A stretch of DNA of 64,000 nucleotides from Candidatus Microgenomatus sp. GTDB taxonomy: Bacteria > Patescibacteriota > Minisyncoccia > UBA6257 > GWB1-50-10. Position numbers and translations under genes: made by a program. Of the stretch, positions 17,139-36,268 are shown piece after piece (the first letter of the stretch is position 1; every line of letters starts with the position of its first letter). The DNA lies in contig DYGI01000001.1 in assembly GCA_020724805.1 (NCBI GenBank), positions 239,157 to 303,156 on the forward strand, in the 5' to 3' direction. The notes beneath the pieces are model-generated. The model did no database searches. It had not been told where the DNA came from and saw nothing but the letters and a program-made list of their open reading frames with translations.

Positions 17139-17606
17139 ATGGTCATTTATCTCGGTTCGGACCATCGCGGATTTGAAATAAAGGAACATCTGAAGAACGC
17201 GCTTGCGGCGCGGGGATACCCCGTGGTAGATCTGGGGCCCGCCGCGTATGACGAGAGCGATGATTATACCGACATTGCCGCCGCGCTTGCGAAGAAAGTG
17301 AGTGCGAATATGGAAACAAGTCGCGGTATTCTTCTCTGTGGTTCCGGAGTGGGAGTGTCGGTGGTAGCGAATAAGTTTCCCAATATTCGCGCGGCGCTTG
17401 TCATGATTCCCGACCAAGCCTTCGACAGCAGGAACGACGACGACGCGAACATATTGGCGCTCGGTACGAATTATCTTGATGCGGCCGCGGCAGAGAAAAT
17501 AGCGGTGACATGGCTTGCCACCCCATTCTCAAAAGAACCGCGGTTTGCGCGTCGACTCCAAGAACTTACAAAAATAGAGGCGGACGCATTGCGTCGTCCG
17601 GAGTAG
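17139..17606 (+). CDS. rpiB: ribose-5-phosphate isomerase B
   Basis: IYLGSDHRGFEIKEHL...LLCGSGVGVSVVANKF. RpiB/LacAB family. Confidence 0.9.
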   Translation: MVIYLGSDHRGFEIKEHLKNALAARGYPVVDLGPAAYDESDDYTDIAAALAKKVSANMETSRGILLCGSGVGVSVVANKFPNIRAALVMIPDQAFDSRNDDDANILALGTNYLDAAAAEKIAVTWLATPFSKEPRFARRLQELTKIEADALRRPE

Positions 17607-17738
17607 CGCATGGACCCCGTTAGAAGCAACTCAGCGACTCAATAATAGATAATGATATGCCTGTGAAATATTTAACCAACCGATTAAATCCGTGTAATAC
17701 GGGCGCGCACGTGGGCGCACCCTGCTTCTAACGGGATG
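17607..17738 (+). repeat. intercistronic structured element, copy A (diverged): SD + mini-ORF MDPVRSNSATQ + long-range stem + start codon of rpe
   Basis: CCCGTTAGAAGCA at 17617-17629 is the reverse complement of TGCTTCTAACGGG, which ends 1 nt before ATG 17736. Inner hairpin CCGTG-TAA-TACGG. Shares its architecture with copies at 31395 and 49511. Confidence 0.6.
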
Positions 17739-18398
17739 GAGGTGATTCCTACCATCAATTGCGGCGACGAAGCATGCGTGCGGCGGGGGCTCGGCGTCGT
17801 GGCGATTCTCGGAGCGGATAAGATTAAGTTCGACGTGTCGGATGGTTCATTCGCGTCCACGGTGACGTGGAACGAGCCCGCGAAACTCCGGAGCATGTTG
17901 GAAAAAGAAGGGTTGGGAGAATCGGAGATCGAGGTGCACCTTATGGTGAAGGATGTGAAGTCGGCGCTCAAGGTTTGGCTTGAAGCGGGGATACGTCGTG
18001 CGATAGTCCATATAGAGGTGTTCCCGAAAGGGAAAGAGTTGGATTTTTTCCATGAAATTGAAAGCATGTGCGTTGCGGCGGGAACAGAACTCGGTCTCGC
18101 GATTGCGCCCGAAACGGCGGTGGATGAACTTGTTGCCTATCTCGGTGAAACGCTTTTTGTGCAACTCCTCGCGGTAAAACCGGGTCCCGCAGGCCAAAAG
18201 TTCGACGAGGGGACGTTTGAAAAACTTGAATTCCTCCGCGACCGCGCGCCTGAGCTGATGATAGAAATCGACGGGGGAGTAACGCCGGCAATCGCGCGAC
18301 GACTCAAGGAAGCCGGCGCCGATGCGGTGGCGTCTTCCTCGTATATTTTCGGCGAGCGCGACCACCGCGCCGCATACCGGGAACTTTTGGACGCGTAA
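17736..18398 (+). CDS. rpe: ribulose-phosphate 3-epimerase
   Basis: 220 aa. HLMV, AVKPGPAGQKF, IEIDGGV motifs. Confidence 0.88.
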   Translation: MEVIPTINCGDEACVRRGLGVVAILGADKIKFDVSDGSFASTVTWNEPAKLRSMLEKEGLGESEIEVHLMVKDVKSALKVWLEAGIRRAIVHIEVFPKGKELDFFHEIESMCVAAGTELGLAIAPETAVDELVAYLGETLFVQLLAVKPGPAGQKFDEGTFEKLEFLRDRAPELMIEIDGGVTPAIARRLKEAGADAVASSSYIFGERDHRAAYRELLDA

Positions 18399-26785: not shown

Positions 26786-26812
26786 CGACTGGCAATTGCC
26801 AGTCGTATTTTT

Positions 26813-26814
<2 letters not shown>
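26786..26814 (+). terminator. perfect 20-nt palindrome plus T-run abutting the 16S 5' end (terminator-like or processing stem)
   Basis: CGACTGGCAATTGCCAGTCG followed by TATTTTTT. Lies between the rRNA promoter and the mature 16S start. Confidence 0.4.
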
Positions 26815-28301
<1,487 letters not shown>

Positions 28302-28509
28302 TAGTACACTTATCTTTTTCATTCCGAAGGGAGGGAGAAAGATAGCGAGCGAAAGATAGGAGGAGAGTGGAACGCGAACTCGTTTTTCGTTCCGCTCTCA
28401 GCCAGATCACGCGAATCCGTGAGGATTCAACAGGTGTTGGCCACTCAGCCTTAAGTTGGTGGCTCTAGGACAACGAAAAAAGTTTTTGGTGGTATACTGA
28501 AAATCAAAC

Positions 28510-31394: not shown

Positions 31395-31523
31395 GGATAT
31401 GAATCCCGTTAGCGGCAACTAATATCATGTTCATGTTTCACCGTATAAATCCAAAAAATCGTAATATAAAGGTCTCGTGGCACAACCACGGTCGCCTTGG
31501 GGCGACCTACCTCTAACGGGATG
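31395..31523 (+). repeat. intercistronic structured element, copy B (SD + mini-ORF MNPVSGN + two GC hairpins + start codon of pilC)
   Basis: AAGGAT-ATGAATCCCGTTAGCGGCAACTAA, then AAAGGTCTCGTGGCACAACCACGGTCGCCTTGGGGCGACCTACCTCTAACGGG-ATG. About 85% identical to copy C outside the central loop. Confidence 0.6.
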
Positions 31524-32729: not shown

Positions 32730-32785
32730 AAAATTGATTCTTATTGAAACATTGAAAATTGAATCATTATGAAGATTGAAAGGTT
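32730..32785 (+). repeat. AT-rich TTGAAR-unit element R1
   Basis: aaaaattgattcttattgaaacattgaaaattgaatcatt runs into the ATG of the four-helix-bundle gene. Same unit family as R2-R5. Confidence 0.6.
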
Positions 32786-33152: not shown

Positions 33153-34324
33153 ACAAGGAATCTTTCAATTCTTCAATGGTTCAATCGCGTGGCGCGCGAA
33201 GCGCGTTCACGCTCATAGAAATGTTGGTGGTGGTTGCACTCACCGTTGCTATTGCGACCGCAGGTTTTCTCGGCCTTTCGGGATATCGCAACAAGCAAGC
33301 GCTCGAATCGGGCCTCGATGAACTCCGCGCGGCGGTGGAGGCAACGAAGCGTCGTTCGGTAGCGCAGGAGGAAGGAAGCCGGTGGGGGATGCGGTTTACA
33401 AACGCGACTTCCGGCATTTCCTCATACTCTGTCTTTCAGGGAAGCTCATATTCCACGAGCGGTATCGACCGTACCTACTCGTTCCGTGACCCCGTGGGGT
33501 TCATGAATCCGTCCGCTTCATCCACCTACGATGTGGTGTTTGCCCCGCTCTCCGGAGCGCTCTCGGAAAATAAAGTGTTCACGCTCGGCGGGGGCTTAAA
33601 AGGTTTTATCGGAGACCTTATTCTTCGCACTATCGGGTCCATCACCGCGCGCACCGATCAAGACGTGGTGGGATATTGGCACTTGGATGAAGGAACGGGA
33701 ACCGCCGCCTACGACTCCTCTGGTTACGGAAATACCGGCACACTCACGAACGGTCCGACGTGGCAATCAGGGACGAGCTGTAGGGCGGGAGGATGTCTAA
33801 ATCTAAACGGTTCGACGCATTACATACAGTACGGGAACGTTTTGAATATGGGTCTTGATGACTGGACGATTTCTGCGTGGGTCAATACAACAGATTCCTC
33901 GCTGACTAATCGGTATTATTTGAGCAAATCAAGAGCGGCAGCGCAAAACTACCGCTACGGTTTATTTATTAGCTCGAGCACACAATCGGGAGGGATATTT
34001 ATGCAGGGGAATGGGGGTGCCGATGTGGCGGTGAGCGGGAATGTAGCCGTCAATAACGGCCAATGGCACCACTTAGTCTCCGTTTTTGACAGAGACAACA
34101 ACGCCTCACTCTACATTGATGGCGCTTTGAATGCGAGCGGAACTATTTCGCAATGGGCAAGCGCAAATATGGTATCAAACAACCCTTTTAGAATAGGGTC
34201 GTACACTGCGTCTGATAATACTACGCCAACGCTATTTTTCCCCGGATCGGTGGACGAATTTCGTGTCTGGAGCCGGGCGCTCTCCGCGAGCGAGATTGAA
34301 GCGCTCTATAATGACCTTAAGTAA
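33149..34324 (+). CDS. type IV pilin-like protein with C-terminal LamG (concanavalin-like lectin) domain
   Basis: RSAFTLIEMLVVVALTVAIATAG pilin-type N-terminus (A at -1). LamG hallmarks WHLDEGTGTAAYDSSGYGNTGT...VDEFRVWSRALSASEI. Confidence 0.7.
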   Translation: MNKESFNSSMVQSRGARSAFTLIEMLVVVALTVAIATAGFLGLSGYRNKQALESGLDELRAAVEATKRRSVAQEEGSRWGMRFTNATSGISSYSVFQGSSYSTSGIDRTYSFRDPVGFMNPSASSTYDVVFAPLSGALSENKVFTLGGGLKGFIGDLILRTIGSITARTDQDVVGYWHLDEGTGTAAYDSSGYGNTGTLTNGPTWQSGTSCRAGGCLNLNGSTHYIQYGNVLNMGLDDWTISAWVNTTDSSLTNRYYLSKSRAAAQNYRYGLFISSSTQSGGIFMQGNGGADVAVSGNVAVNNGQWHHLVSVFDRDNNASLYIDGALNASGTISQWASANMVSNNPFRIGSYTASDNTTPTLFFPGSVDEFRVWSRALSASEIEALYNDLK

Positions 34325-34400
34325 ATGAAATTGAAAATTAAAAAATTGAAAATTGAACGATTGAATAGCAAATTTTTCAATCTTTCAATCCTTCAATCAC
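34325..34400 (+). repeat. AT-rich TTGAAR-unit palindromic element R2 (overlaps annotated 5' end of next CDS)
   Basis: ATGAAATTGAAAATTAAAAAATTGAAAATTGAACGATTGAATAGCAAATTTTTCAATCTTTCAATCCTTCAATCAC. Imperfect palindrome of tandem subrepeats. Confidence 0.6.
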
Positions 34401-35700: not shown

Positions 35701-35780
35701 TTATTGAAGAATTGAGAGATTAAAGAATTGAAGAATTAGGAGATTAATAAAGAATTTTTCAATCTTTCAATTTTCAATAC
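35701..35780 (+). repeat. AT-rich TTGAAR-unit palindromic element R3
   Basis: attgaagaattgagagattaaagaattgaagaatt ... aatttttcaatctttcaattttcaat. Left and right halves are reverse complements. Confidence 0.6.
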
Positions 35781-35805: not shown

Positions 35806-36207
35806 ATGGCAACGATAAGGAACTTCCATGAAAAGTTAGAACAAGATCTCCAACGGGTAACCGCGGAGATCGAGCGCCGCAGGGAACGCGCACCCGAAAT
35901 CGCATCACGCGAAGTGGTGAGGCAGTCCATTATTGCGGCAATACCTCAAGCACCTGTTTCGGAGAGGGTCGAGGCCTCTCCCTCTGGTTCTTCACCGGCC
36001 GCGCCGGAGCGAATTCCCGCATATCTTAATGAGGAATCTCCTGAAATAAAGGCGGAGGTGGAACGACTCGTATCGCTGGCGTTCGAGAAGGGCATTTCAT
36101 CGGCAGTGGAAGAGGCGGCAAAAAAGTCCCCGTTCGTACTTGATGCGTTCCACGATGCGCTTGCGGATAAACTTCTGCCGGAATTGGAGAAAAGAGGAAT
36201 AATTTAA
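35806..36207 (+). CDS. hypothetical protein (133 aa, predicted helical)
   Basis: ORF between R3 and R4. Charged, helical composition. No motif recognised. Confidence 0.45.
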   Translation: MATIRNFHEKLEQDLQRVTAEIERRRERAPEIASREVVRQSIIAAIPQAPVSERVEASPSGSSPAAPERIPAYLNEESPEIKAEVERLVSLAFEKGISSAVEEAAKKSPFVLDAFHDALADKLLPELEKRGII

Positions 36208-36264
36208 AAATTGAAGAATTGAAGCATTGAATGATTAATTTTTCAATTTTCAATTTTCAATTTA
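36208..36264 (+). repeat. AT-rich TTGAAR-unit palindromic element R4
   Basis: aaaaattgaagaattgaagcattgaatgattaatttttcaattttcaattttcaattt, ending 4 nt before ATG 36269. Confidence 0.6.
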
Positions 36265-36268
36265 TTTT

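Follow-up and report, generated by a model that had tools for sequence, protein, structure and literature searches.

A short palindrome-ended insertion at the rpe start codon of a Microgenomatus genome, probably derived from a GIY-YIG nuclease element

Between rpiB and rpe the 64-kb window, i.e. the whole stretch of 64,000 nucleotides that was analysed, carries a palindrome-ended segment (copy A, 17610–17740) which is, with a probability of about 0.75, a non-autonomous, internally deleted MITE in the broad sense from a family of very small GIY-YIG elements of the ultra-small Patescibacteria. Copy A was inserted, its target is duplicated on both sides, it belongs to a widespread family which includes elements with a GIY-YIG gene, and the paired positions of this family covary. 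Four features of MITEs were found, namely terminal inverted repeats, target duplication, presence and absence at orthologous sites and a small, non-coding, multicopy character. A search of open-access papers and preprints gave no prior description of the element family.

Copies in the window and in the family

All features of the window described here lie on the plus strand. The rpiB stop codon TAG (17604–17606; ORF 17139–17606, Pfam LacAB_rpiB, E 1e-41) is followed by the left target copy ATGGA (17610–17614), which was delimited by the empty sites of relatives and by flank covariation at −4/−3 and +3/+4. The ATG of this target copy is a decoy which opens a mini-ORF of 11 codons, MDPVRSNSATQ (ATG at 17610 to TAA at 17645), in which the 5′ terminal inverted repeat CCCGTTAGAAGCA (17616–17628) reads PVRS; the mini-ORF is probably a relic of the nuclease leader described below. 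The adjoining AT-rich interior (17629–17689) is collinear with full-length elements and with the short copy L179, and by its position would represent the decayed 5′ portion of the ancestral nuclease ORF. A small hairpin, CCGTG-TAA-TACGG (17690–17702; four Watson-Crick pairs and one G·T), ends in ACGG, a motif which precedes the inner hairpin throughout the family and which in full-length elements lies within ..CTACGG.., the codons for L-R of DLRKRF. The inner GC-rich hairpin GGGCGCGC-ACGTG-GGCGCACCC (17701–17722), indicated by the fold and by family covariation, contains one C·A mismatch on the plus strand and abuts the 3′ terminal inverted repeat TGCTTCTAACGGG (17723–17735), which in full-length elements encodes the nuclease C-terminus ..LSLTG. 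The right target copy ATGGA (17736–17740) provides the true start codon of rpe (17736–18398; product Pfam Ribul_P_3_epim, E 9e-29).

Copy B (31399–31523) lies between a T2SSE ATPase and a T2SSF platform gene (pilB/pilC-like), with its decoy ATGAAT at 31399–31404 and the true ATG at 31521. Its arms CCCGTTAGCGGCA (31405–31417) and TACCTCTAACGGG (31508–31520) contain two mismatches (8 bp + 2 bp + 1 bp), and its small hairpin is CGTGG-CACAA-CCACG. Copy C (49516–49641) occupies the rpsF|ssb junction, with the decoy ATGAAT at 49516–49521 and the true ATG at 49639; its arms CCCGTTAGAGGCA (49522–49534) and TGCCTCTAACGGG (49626–49638) are perfect and extend to 15 bp if the flanking AT/AT is counted. 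The interior of copy C has ATGATTTAC (M-I-Y), which resembles the start of the nuclease ORF. A sigma-70 promoter was not found inside copy C; one is present in the 3′ end of rpsF. Short copies of this kind are 101–131 nt long and non-coding, and three of them lie in the 64 kb.

The first-pass annotation had described the perfect 13-bp long-range pairing of copy A, with A-T at stem position 10 where copy C (like copy B) has G-C, its 11-codon mini-ORF, a small hairpin differing from that of copies B and C and the two mismatches in the stem of copy B, and each of these descriptions is borne out by the sequence. The exact 13-mer of copy A occurs in the window only at its two arm sites, and the same architecture is present three times in the window and at over 350 further sites, so that a chance origin of the pairing was dismissed.

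The more than 350 related copies were collected from genomes and metagenomes of Patescibacteria. The genome scan gave 113 stretches with 120 copies; these come from no fewer than 44 genome assemblies, which belong for the most part to Saccharibacteria and Paceibacteria/Parcubacteria lineages, and a single MAG has up to eight pattern matches. The metagenomes contributed 103 contigs, with abutted ends and with tandem arrays whose units are separated by RT-NN-AY. Mini-versions of 30–80 nt with the same ends and tandem arrays of short units were found as well. The outer 8–9 bp of the arms (CCCGTTAGA/TCTAACGGG) are nearly invariant in sequence, and the patterns used for sampling fix much of the arms: in each arm the outer 8 bp and positions 11–13 were set by the search pattern, whereas pair 10 was free on both sides. 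Phage DNA was searched by blastn against phage records and by two pattern scans of viral contigs; these searches were empty, and hence there is no sign of a phage vector.

Insertion at start codons

In four relatives (L114, L115, L116/L117 and L118), whose Rpe proteins are 73–81% identical, the rpiB|rpe junction carries no element and the two genes lie 1–7 nt apart. These empty sites read stop-N(1-7)-ATGGAGGT..., and the rpe orthologues begin with ATGGAGGT, ATGGAAAT or ATGGAAGT. The rpsF|ssb junction is empty in the relatives L119 and L122. At the filled sites ATGGA...ATGGA surrounds copy A and ATGAAT...ATGAAT surrounds copy C. Since the junctions of the relatives are empty and ATGGA is duplicated on both sides, copy A is an insertion at the rpe start codon and not a locally diverged regulatory RNA; it is fixed, being present in all four assemblies with identical rpe. 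The first-pass annotation had proposed that orthologous junctions be collected; the absence of the element from the four relatives speaks against a compensation in place.

The extent of the duplication was derived from the flanks of family copies. The flank pairs −4/+3 and −3/+4 share mutual information of 0.42 and 0.54 bits, and the flank dinucleotides are identical in 81 of 123 copies, where 33 were expected and 48 was the maximum of 5000 shuffles. The pair −1/+1 covaries as a complement (T..A or C..G); the inverted repeat therefore comprises 15 bp, and this 15-bp repeat, AYCCCGTTAGARGCA, was found across the family. Because the pairs −2/+5, −5/+2 and −6/+1 show no covariation, a fixed duplication of 5 or 6 bp was discarded, and the bases at these positions belong to the element ends or reflect a target preference. 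The duplication is imperfect, being exact in 66% of the copies and off register by ±1 nt in about 10%.

A start codon adjoins 101 of the 123 copies; among harmless ATGRA sites in the window, start codons make up about 27% (18 starts vs 48 intergenic sites). A start codon in the −6 register is present in 59 of the 123 copies, with mini-ORFs ranging from 7 to 78 codons. The mini-ORF is not conserved across the family.

GIY-YIG elements and the origin of the short copies

Spacings between the feet peak at 30–50, 60–80, 100–125 and 275–280 nt. Seven full-length copies of 275–280 nt were found, with the same feet and flanks as the short copies, and each carries between CCCGTTAGA...TCTAACGGG (about 275 bp) one gene for an 85-aa GIY-YIG nuclease. 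The ORF matches the GIY-YIG domain PF01541 above cut-off (E 5e-15 and 9e-17). Its nearest solved proteins are UPF0213 BH0048 (1zg2, E 1e-12) and UPF0213 EF2693 (1ywl), the match to SLX1 (7cq2) is marginal (E 0.0096) and that to TIGR01453 is weak and below threshold; the enzyme is a GIY-YIG nuclease of the UPF0213/Slx1-like type. An alignment of the full-length relatives revealed invariant Y5, Y15, R25, H29, E49/E61 and N75.

The arms are part of the reading frame. The 5′ arm of full-length copies gives the leader MNPVRD, and the ORF continues across the 3′ arm (...KRFLSLTG) to end on the TGA within the ATGA of the host gene, in line with gene calls in which the nuclease gene overlaps the next gene by 4 nt. 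More than 6000 close homologues of the nuclease were retrieved, and 2672 clusters at E<1e-10. The arm-encoded KRFLSLTG forms the end of 100 of the best 120 of these, and 29 of the best 120 are 93–98 aa long, nearly all beginning with a leader of the type MNPVRDxxxM. In about 1.5 Mb of element-enriched DNA the GIY-YIG gene is the only coding capacity found between the feet, no transposase-sized ORF was found there, and GIY-YIG is likewise the only gene found next to the feet; the rare spacings of more than 800 nt contain host genes of an ordinary kind, e.g. a gyrB fragment or a YebC-like gene. No GIY-YIG gene is present in the 64-kb window, where the best profile match has an E value of 0.36.

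The copies of about 115 nt are probably internally deleted forms of the GIY-YIG elements of about 275 nt, as suggested by several intermediates. The short copy L179 (121 nt) equals the full-length L125/L163 minus about 155 nt between an internal inverted repeat, and its hairpin is this internal inverted repeat of the nuclease gene, ACGGAAACGCTTTA / TAAAGCGTTTCC, closed up. Furthermore, tblastn unveiled N-terminal nuclease remnants of 27 residues with 67–70% identity in the short copies L129, L173 and L179. The interiors of copies A–C gave no significant similarity to full-length elements in nhmmer and profile searches; in nhmmer only the ends aligned (E 0.08–0.4). The window copies are consequently linked to the full-length elements through shared ends, flanks and architecture and through the intermediate copies.

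Paired ends, mobilisation and known systems

At arm pair 10, 123 copies comprise 76 A-T, 41 G-C, two G-T, one A-C and three others, and further matched arm variants (AGAGACA/TGTCTCT, AGAAGTA/TACTTCT) occur. At least three switches between A-T and G-C were found among clearly related copies (L006/L060/L107 vs L056; L043/L045 vs L044; L047 vs L100), L047 vs L100 being G-C vs G·T at this pair. A parsimony count of 26 such switches on a k-mer tree was set aside, the tree being poor. The difference between copies A and C had been read as a double change which arose in place. This reading did not hold up, as copy A is an independent insertion, and its inner hairpin type (GGG..CGC...GCGCACCC) is also present in copies of other genomes (L016, L038, L048, L052 and L105), all of which carry A-T at pair 10. 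Since copies with the same hairpin were already A-T elsewhere, A-T vs G-C is best taken as a family polymorphism of the terminal repeats, matched between the ends, and not as a paralogue double substitution.

The inner hairpin occurs in 75 distinct sequences with the pairing kept. In 84 aligned copies the covariation score for the two helices was 0.310; column shuffles gave 0.113 (none of 500 reached the observed value) and slid partners gave 0.04–0.085. The first-pass annotation had suggested a formal covariation test, and covariation was indeed found. Its statement that pairing is conserved rather than sequence holds only in part, the outer 8–9 bp being nearly invariant in sequence. Selection on pairing, likewise claimed there, is corroborated by the matched pair 10 and the 75 hairpins; that this points to an RNA helix is not. 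The matched base changes are evidence of selection on paired ends, not of RNA function, and covariation which preserves pairing does not distinguish RNA from DNA. Matched ends are expected at the DNA level, since a mobile element with a target duplication carries these arms as its terminal inverted repeats.

A functional RNA helix, in which the co-transcribed stem and hairpins would act in the mRNA, perhaps after exaptation of a mobile element, is an improbable explanation of copy A. Possible roles are a site for RNase III or other processing, a stabiliser, or control of access to the rpe start codon. The window copies lie between co-directional genes, 1–7 nt apart in relatives, and are almost certainly co-transcribed; copies B and C have strong folds (−40.7 kcal/mol, z −3.2, and −46.7 kcal/mol, z −5.3), and the covariation is significant. 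A helix of this length would be an unusual substrate, since RNase III substrates usually span about two helical turns and the stem of 13–15 bp, which opens into a multi-branch interior, is shorter. A precedent is given by the Correia inverted repeats of Neisseria (CREE/NEMIS), which form an RNA stem that is cut by RNase III in the mRNA (PMC10969869). The strands do not favour RNA, however: in the three window copies sense and antisense give folds of about equal quality, and for copy A the antisense strand folds better (z −4.1) than the sense strand (z −1.05). In sense orientation the inner hairpin shows no preference for G·U over A·C mismatches (31 vs 33), which argues for constraint at the DNA level over selection on a sense-strand RNA, whereas arm positions 10–13 show a weak G·U excess (18 vs 7 A·C) that could stem from RNA- or strand-level selection or from mutation bias. 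The orientation to the gene is strongly biased (of 90 copies whose hairpin is clear, 70 have the hairpin side toward the host gene and 6 have it on the far side), but hairpin orientation equals nuclease ORF orientation and the bias is accounted for by the design of this ORF. In addition, the same ends flank a protein-coding element, the mini-versions and the tandem arrays, relatives manage without the element at the same junctions, and Rfam 15 gave at the three loci no family at gathering score and only noise at E up to 10. A role of the stem in bringing an SD near was dropped, as an anti-SD is missing from the 16S gene and the regions upstream of genes show no enrichment of SD-like motifs. 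By analogy with the Correia elements, an RNA-level effect such as RNase III cutting may be added to the mobile-element origin.

Two other accounts concern the manner of spread. The short copies might be conventional MITEs moved by an ordinary transposase (DDE or serine) of a longer element with the same ends, with the GIY-YIG copies as passengers; groups with a 2–3-bp duplication, e.g. IS30, IS5/ISL2 or IS607, would be candidates. Terminal inverted repeats with a short target duplication are a transposase hallmark, nucleases alone do not transpose DNA, and abutted ends only 2 nt apart are reminiscent of junctions of the IS30/IS3 type or of the crossover site of a serine recombinase. Against this stand the 1.5 Mb of enriched DNA without a transposase-sized ORF between the feet and a GIY-YIG frame which is built into both arms, from the MNPVRD leader to the LSLTG tail ending in ATGA, and we regard a transposase origin as quite unlikely. 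Slightly less likely still is spread by homing only, with short copies arising as deletions in place and neither transposition nor selection on the ends. GIY-YIG proteins are classical homing endonucleases, and the excess of copies at start codons over the ATGRA background would fit translated full-length insertions. Yet many unrelated loci are occupied, beyond the reach of homing, single genomes hold short copies of almost the same sequence at separate loci (L053 with two, L045 with three; also L014/L026), short units form tandem arrays, and arms and hairpin of short copies still covary after coding capacity was lost.

The abutted ends form a 13–15-bp inverted repeat around AT-NN-AT, which prompted the idea of lox/dif-like tyrosine or IS607-like serine recombination. 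It was rejected, as no recombinase was found and the GIY-YIG parent is simpler. Integron attC sites, which have the order R″(RYYYAAC)...R′(GTTRRRY) and occur in cassette arrays with an integrase, were likewise rejected: the arms GTTAGAR...YTCTAAC have the opposite polarity on both strands and are without cassette context.

On the preferred reading, copy A is a remnant of a GIY-YIG element. The elements of the family lie at AT|NN|A, overwhelmingly on the ATG of host genes, and owing to the short duplication of the target and to the element's own ends (AY...RT) an ATG is found on either side. From the left one, full-length copies can be read, with the host's translation start signals, through the 5′ arm into the nuclease (MNPVRD...), whose stop overlaps the regenerated host start codon (ATGA). 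After loss of most of the nuclease gene, copy A would have retained its two arms, a decoy ATG with a meaningless mini-ORF, the AT-rich remnant and the inner hairpin, the last formed by closure of the internal inverted repeat on either side of the lost segment. The nuclease, acting in trans for short copies, may recognise the ends in paired or extruded form along with the conserved foot, and cut with the 2-nt stagger typical of GIY-YIG enzymes; the complementarity of arms and hairpin would then be selected on DNA by this recognition. We know of no GIY-YIG enzyme that catalyses transposition, and with an 85-aa nuclease without strand-transfer activity, reinsertion would conceivably need host ligation or repair. 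A 2-nt 3′ overhang, described as characteristic of GIY-YIG endonucleases (PMC2761285), matches the 2-bp duplication and was counted in favour of the nuclease model.

More tentatively, and with somewhat less than even odds, the units of about 275 bp may be autonomous transposable elements outside the DDE, DEDD, HUH, serine, tyrosine and Cas1 classes, whose sole protein, the GIY-YIG nuclease, recognises the paired ends of the element and which as start-codon parasites spawn derivatives of 30–125 nt. If so, no smaller DNA element that mobilises itself would be known; they would parasitise host start codons, being translated from the initiation site of the host and returning the ribosome to the host gene via the ATGA overlap, their palindromic derivatives would fill operon junctions throughout the Patescibacteria, and the covariation noted in the first-pass annotation would be the footprint of structure-specific DNA recognition. 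Mobilisation by the nuclease would represent a new, extremely compact way for DNA to move, with insertion kept harmless through start-codon regeneration and coupled translation, and a compact structure- or sequence-specific nuclease may be of practical interest.

Among known systems, the Correia elements duplicate a fixed TA, and to our knowledge no partner enzyme has been firmly identified for them; in contrast, the Patescibacteria element duplicates a variable NN in AT|NN|A, regenerates a start codon, has a GIY-YIG coding parent and is spread over phylum-level lineages. Both have a non-coding body of about 100–150 bp which ends in terminal inverted repeats and is flanked by a target duplication of 2 bp, and Correia copies occur by the dozens per genome, often just upstream of genes and co-transcribed (PMC10969869). 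ERIC/IRU sequences are imperfect palindromes of about 127 bp in transcribed intergenic operon regions with an orientation-dependent effect on mRNA stability (PMC10969869). They differ in having no sequence relation, in not lying on start codons and in being without a known nuclease-gene parent. REP/REPIN sequences are short palindromes outside genes, in which a conserved GTAG foot is joined to a stem that varies and covaries; they are arranged singly, as doublets or in clusters, and their hairpins are presumably recognised by a small nuclease-like enzyme of their own (RAYT, Y1 HUH). Unlike these, the present family has a GIY-YIG instead of an HUH enzyme, with the gene inside the palindrome and not REP-flanked, shows a target duplication and lies at start codons rather than after stop codons.

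I-TevI, I-BmoI and the T4 Seg proteins share the GIY-YIG domain, the selfish location between host genes and cutting with a 2-nt 3′ stagger (PMC2761285). Unlike the bare 85-aa domain of the element protein, they comprise 200–300 aa with separate DNA-binding domains and one cognate site, and have neither terminal inverted repeats nor MITE derivatives. In sequence, the solved proteins nearest to the nuclease are UPF0213/COG2827 (YhbQ-like) proteins and, as a marginal match, Slx1. The latter acts on branched DNA as a structure-specific nuclease, which fits recognition of paired or extruded ends. Proteins of both kinds are regarded as normal components of the cell with an unknown or a repair function, and we know of no description of them as cargo of palindrome-ended mobile units. 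In the same host group, GIY-YIG ORFs, i.e. the same protein family, were reported in non-intron insertions of CPR rRNA genes by Tsurumaki et al. 2024 (PMC11270868), where neither inverted ends nor a duplicated target, nesting at start codons or short derivatives are described.

The recurrent, highly conserved "spacer with mini-ORF" of about 115 nt at operon junctions of Patescibacteria, whose streamlined genomes have few recognised mobile elements, thus finds an explanation, and many small genes annotated as "GIY-YIG nuclease family protein" or "excinuclease ABC subunit C" in these genomes are parts of palindrome-ended selfish units. For RNA-motif discovery, caution is advisable, since strong covariation in intergenic palindromes can stem from the ends of mobile DNA. 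Finally, the decoy ATG misleads gene callers, resulting in N-terminally extended or fused ORFs (P0364, P0367).

Insertion of the element at start codons

Copy A of the palindrome-ended element (17610-17740) lies between rpiB and rpe, with the terminal inverted repeats, or arms, CCCGTTAGAAGCA (17616-17628) and TGCTTCTAACGGG (17723-17735), copy B (31399-31523) between the T2SSE ATPase and T2SSF platform genes and copy C (49516-49641; arms CCCGTTAGAGGCA and TGCCTCTAACGGG) between rpsF and ssb. Re-reading of the three copies confirmed the sequence description in the first-pass annotation, including the two mismatches in the stem of copy B and the 11 codons of the mini-ORF in copy A. Each copy opens with ATGRAY a few bases 3' of the preceding gene's stop codon and ends in ...CGGG, followed at once by the ATG of the next gene; no Rfam family matched at any of the three.

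The closest Rpe homologues (73-81% identical) come from Brennerbacteria/Jorgensenbacteria-type genomes. These relatives lack the element: rpiB ends 1-7 nt before rpe and the junction reads stop-N-ATGGAGGT..., versus TAG-CGC-ATGGA-C[element]ATGGA-GGTG in the window. All four assemblies with an identical Rpe carry copy A. Likewise, the rpsF-ssb junction is empty in two relatives (caaTAGaagcaATGAAC) and filled in the window (ATGAAT[element]ATGAATCTG). The downstream gene therefore has its start-codon region in two copies, one on each side of the element, and the upstream copy makes the "mini-ORF". The element was gained at start codons with a short duplication, the ATG being regenerated.

A family scan of one genome per species with the pattern CCCGTTAG-NN-GCA...T-N-C-N-TCTAACGGG yielded 113 stretches with 120 further copies from at least 44 assemblies. 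Oriented by the GC hairpin adjoining one arm, most copies are flanked as ...ATGRAT|CCCG...CGGG|ATGRA.... The flank pairs -4/+3 and -3/+4 covary as direct repeats (0.42 and 0.54 bits), the pair -1/+1 covaries as complement (T..A or C..G), and the flank dinucleotides are identical in 81 of 123 copies versus 33 expected. From this we concluded that the element is AY-CCCGTTAGARGCA...TGCYTCTAACGGG-RT with a duplication of ~2 bp; the repeat appears to be 5-6 bp long, and the ATG is regenerated on the right, because the element ends mimic the target (AT|NN|A). Flanks such as GTTGAC..GTTGAC, CTTGC..CTTGC and TCAAT..TCAAT in some copies indicate that the repeat is not bound to ATG.

Start codons that open an ORF of 60 codons or more adjoin the hairpin-side end in 87 of the 123 copies, the other end in 14 and neither end in 22, and the preceding gene's stop is often the TGA of ATGA or a TAG within the 5' arm. 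Start codons make up only 18 of the 66 harmless ATGRA sites in the window yet adjoin 101 of the 123 copies, so that further target determinants, or selection, must play a part. At its 3' end the 16S gene (26808-28310) reads TAGTACACTT after GGATC (28296-28420), the canonical anti-Shine-Dalgarno being CACCTCCTT, with no CCTCC within 110 nt after TAGTACACTT, and SD-like motifs upstream of genes are not enriched (10 of 57 rough gene calls versus 14.6% background); an element directly before the ATG thus cuts no gene off from a Shine-Dalgarno sequence.

The GIY-YIG parent and its short derivatives

The carriers are nearly all Patescibacteria (Saccharibacteria, Paceibacterota, Jorgensen-, Yanofsky- and Harrisonbacteria); a few assemblies bear the source labels Planctomycetota, Omnitrophota or Elusimicrobiota. 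Scanning metagenomes for abutted ends (TCTAACGGG-N4-9-CCCGTTAGARGC) gave 103 contigs, in which head-to-tail arrays are common, with RT-NN-AY, mostly 6 nt, between units. The spacing between feet, the conserved outer arm parts, falls into classes of about 30-50, 60-80, 100-125 and 275-280 nt. The last class contains an ORF whose product matches the GIY-YIG catalytic domain PF01541 (E 5e-15 and 9e-17). Among proteins of solved structure, BH0048 and EF2693 of UPF0213 come closest to it, followed by SLX1 as a marginal hit (E 0.0096). Four of these copies carry an intact 85-aa ORF and three are degraded. The ORF starts ~20 nt inside the 5' arm and crosses the 3' arm (...KRFLSLTG); its stop is the TGA of the flanking ATGA, which gives a 4-nt overlap with the start codon of the host gene, as independent gene calls confirm. 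Several full-length copies have their nuclease ORF in frame with the duplicated host ATG. Database homologues number more than 6000; of the 120 best, 100 have KRFLSLTG as their C-terminus and 29 are 93-98 aa long, nearly all of the latter led by an MNPVRDxxxM-type leader (host ATG plus arm). The homologues, all from Patescibacteria, are named "GIY-YIG nuclease family protein", "putative endonuclease" or "excinuclease ABC subunit C" in the source. At E<1e-3 a profile search returned 15,415 clusters, of which 2,672 reach E<1e-10; in one cluster the leader reads MNPVRG, corresponding to an arm of the copy C type.

The short copies (~115 nt) are kin to these GIY-YIG units and are deletion products of full-length elements. 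A 121-nt copy (collected stretch L179) is collinear and nearly identical with the full-length copies of L125 and L163 over the first ~100 and last ~22 nt and lacks ~155 nt between the internal inverted repeat ACGGAAACGCTTTA ... TAAAGCGTTTCC, encoding DLRKRF and LKRFL. Such a deletion yields exactly the hallmark of short copies, an arm-adjacent hairpin preceded by ACGG. Furthermore, tblastn unveiled N-terminal nuclease remnants in short copies (67-70% identity over 27 residues). Near-identical short copies at different loci of one genome (L053, L045, L014/L026) show amplification within genomes. Copies B and C, whose interiors are 78% identical and which are each other's closest relatives, retain ATG(A/T)TT(T/C)A.. 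near the nuclease start position and ..(C/T)ACGG 5' of the hairpin. The hairpin type of copy A differs from theirs and is common to L016, L038, L048, L052 and L105, all A-T at arm pair 10. The interiors of the window copies are too diverged for a significant match to full-length elements, and the 64-kb window holds no GIY-YIG gene. Copy A is what is left of a GIY-YIG mini-element nested at a start codon.

Several variants accompany the family. Mini-versions of 30-42 nt are plain hairpins with a CCCGTTAGA/TCTAACGGG foot (L142 456-521, L178 1202-1243, L196 1513-1554), some in tandem 6 nt apart. An AC...GT-ended subfamily always has GTTGAC on both sides, usually away from start codons (L005, L011, L036, L075, L102); it also occupies many metagenome loci (spacers GTTGAC/GTCAAC). 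Several contigs of the subfamily are labelled Planctomycetota, and a 950-codon ORF in L005 stops on the TGA of the flanking GTTGAC. In the collected protein P0364 a short element interrupts the GIY-YIG ORF in frame (..YPVRGRSPRGG...ASNGV..), and in P0367 an element fuses the ORF with the gene that follows; both are cases of nested insertion and of miscalled genes, to which the open reading frames in the arms give rise. Other inverted repeats, such as CCCCGCACCTTTTAAGC...GCTTAAAAGGTGCGGGG and CCTGCCTGCGCCGC...GCGCGGCAGGCAGG, bracket small GIY-YIG ORFs with 31-54% identity to those studied (L137 5047-5295; L161 1699-1932; L034 5199-5429 = L008 2993-3223; L082 4848-5084), one directly after a tRNA 3' end; several families of palindrome-ended GIY-YIG units may exist.

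Selection on the pairing of the element ends

The first-pass annotation had taken the G-C/A-T change at arm pair 10 between copies C and A as the sign of a functional RNA helix. With pair 10 left free on both sides in the search pattern, A-T was counted 76 times, G-C 41, G-T 2, A-C 1 and others 3, and its state differs among related copies (L006/L060/L107 vs L056; L043/L045 vs L044; L047 G-C vs L100 G·T). Further matched arm variants are AGAGACA/TGTCTCT and AGAAGTA/TACTTCT, and the inner hairpin, which adjoins the 3' arm, keeps its pairing through 75 sequence versions. The covariation score of 84 aligned copies was 0.310 versus 0.113 in shuffles (0/500), slid partners reaching at most 0.085. 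The complementarity of the element ends is under selection, and the family covariation thus bears out the inference of selected pairing at family level, whereas the difference between A and C is a polymorphism between independently inserted copies.

Whether RNA or DNA is the constrained molecule was judged from 145 distinct copies of 95-135 nt, all read in the direction of the nuclease ORF, which for most is also that of the host gene. A helix selected as sense RNA is expected to accept G·U much more readily than A·C. In the inner hairpin this asymmetry is absent (Watson-Crick 1040, G·U 31, A·C 33; p = 0.9), and in arm positions 10-13 it is weak (525, 18 and 7, respectively), where a strand-biased mutation rate could also be the source of the G·U excess. 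RNA folding was far better than for shuffled sequence in B and C, and in A on the antisense strand only. A constraint at DNA level fits the similar folding of both strands, the target duplications, the tandem arrays and the same ends around a coding element. The orientation bias of the copies (70 vs 6) arises because the parent must be translated from the host start and end on ATGA. The evidence therefore points to mobile-DNA ends rather than a dedicated RNA helix; an RNase III effect like that of Correia elements is conceivable by analogy.

Proposed mobility, known systems and neighbouring repeats

The binding site of the nuclease would be the invariant foot, where a dimer would probably sit either on both identical ends or on a hairpin/cruciform that has been extruded, in keeping with the enzyme's Slx1-like relatives. 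The enzyme would cut AY/RT boundaries and AT|NN|A targets with a 2-nt 3' stagger, which is said to be characteristic of GIY-YIG enzymes (PMC2761285). With matching overhangs the element could be excised, form circles or tandems and be reinserted via host ligation or repair, and the non-palindromic NN (mostly GA) would also set the orientation of insertion.

The short copies are similar in build to Correia and ERIC elements, and the parent is similar to free-standing GIY-YIG homing endonuclease genes; unlike those genes, the parent is a bare catalytic domain within inverted repeats, at many loci and with MITE-like offspring. GIY-YIG ORFs in non-intron, not homing-like insertions are known from CPR rRNA genes, reported with no ends, duplications or derivatives (PMC11270868). 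Recent surveys and reviews of prokaryotic MITEs make no mention of Patescibacteria, GIY-YIG or start codons, and no description of the family was found in open-access papers and preprints; there is a fair chance that the element represents a new class of transposon.

At the rpsF-ssb junction of two relatives (L120 1404-1500, L121 1400-1500) lies a different spacer of ~97 nt, without CCCGTTAG feet and full of ACGAAT / ATTCGT repeats, which may be another repeat or insertion family targeting the same place. A promoter-like TTGAAA-18-TACAAT within the 3' end of rpsF (49479-49508), a little before copy C, is conserved in empty-site relatives and may serve ssb-rpsR as an internal promoter. Several gene ends, e.g. 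those of the T2SSF gene and rpsR, are closely followed by AT-rich repeats of the ATTGAA(N)ATTGAA type (32743-32768, 34324-34384, 35706-35766, 36197-36265, 50337-50370), and a AATTTTCAATTTTCAAT run in L222 is similar. Directly upstream of rpiB in Brennerbacteria GCA_016183535.1 (L116 865-1928) lies an IS3-type transposase pair (HTH_Tnp_1 + rve), which is unrelated to the element studied.
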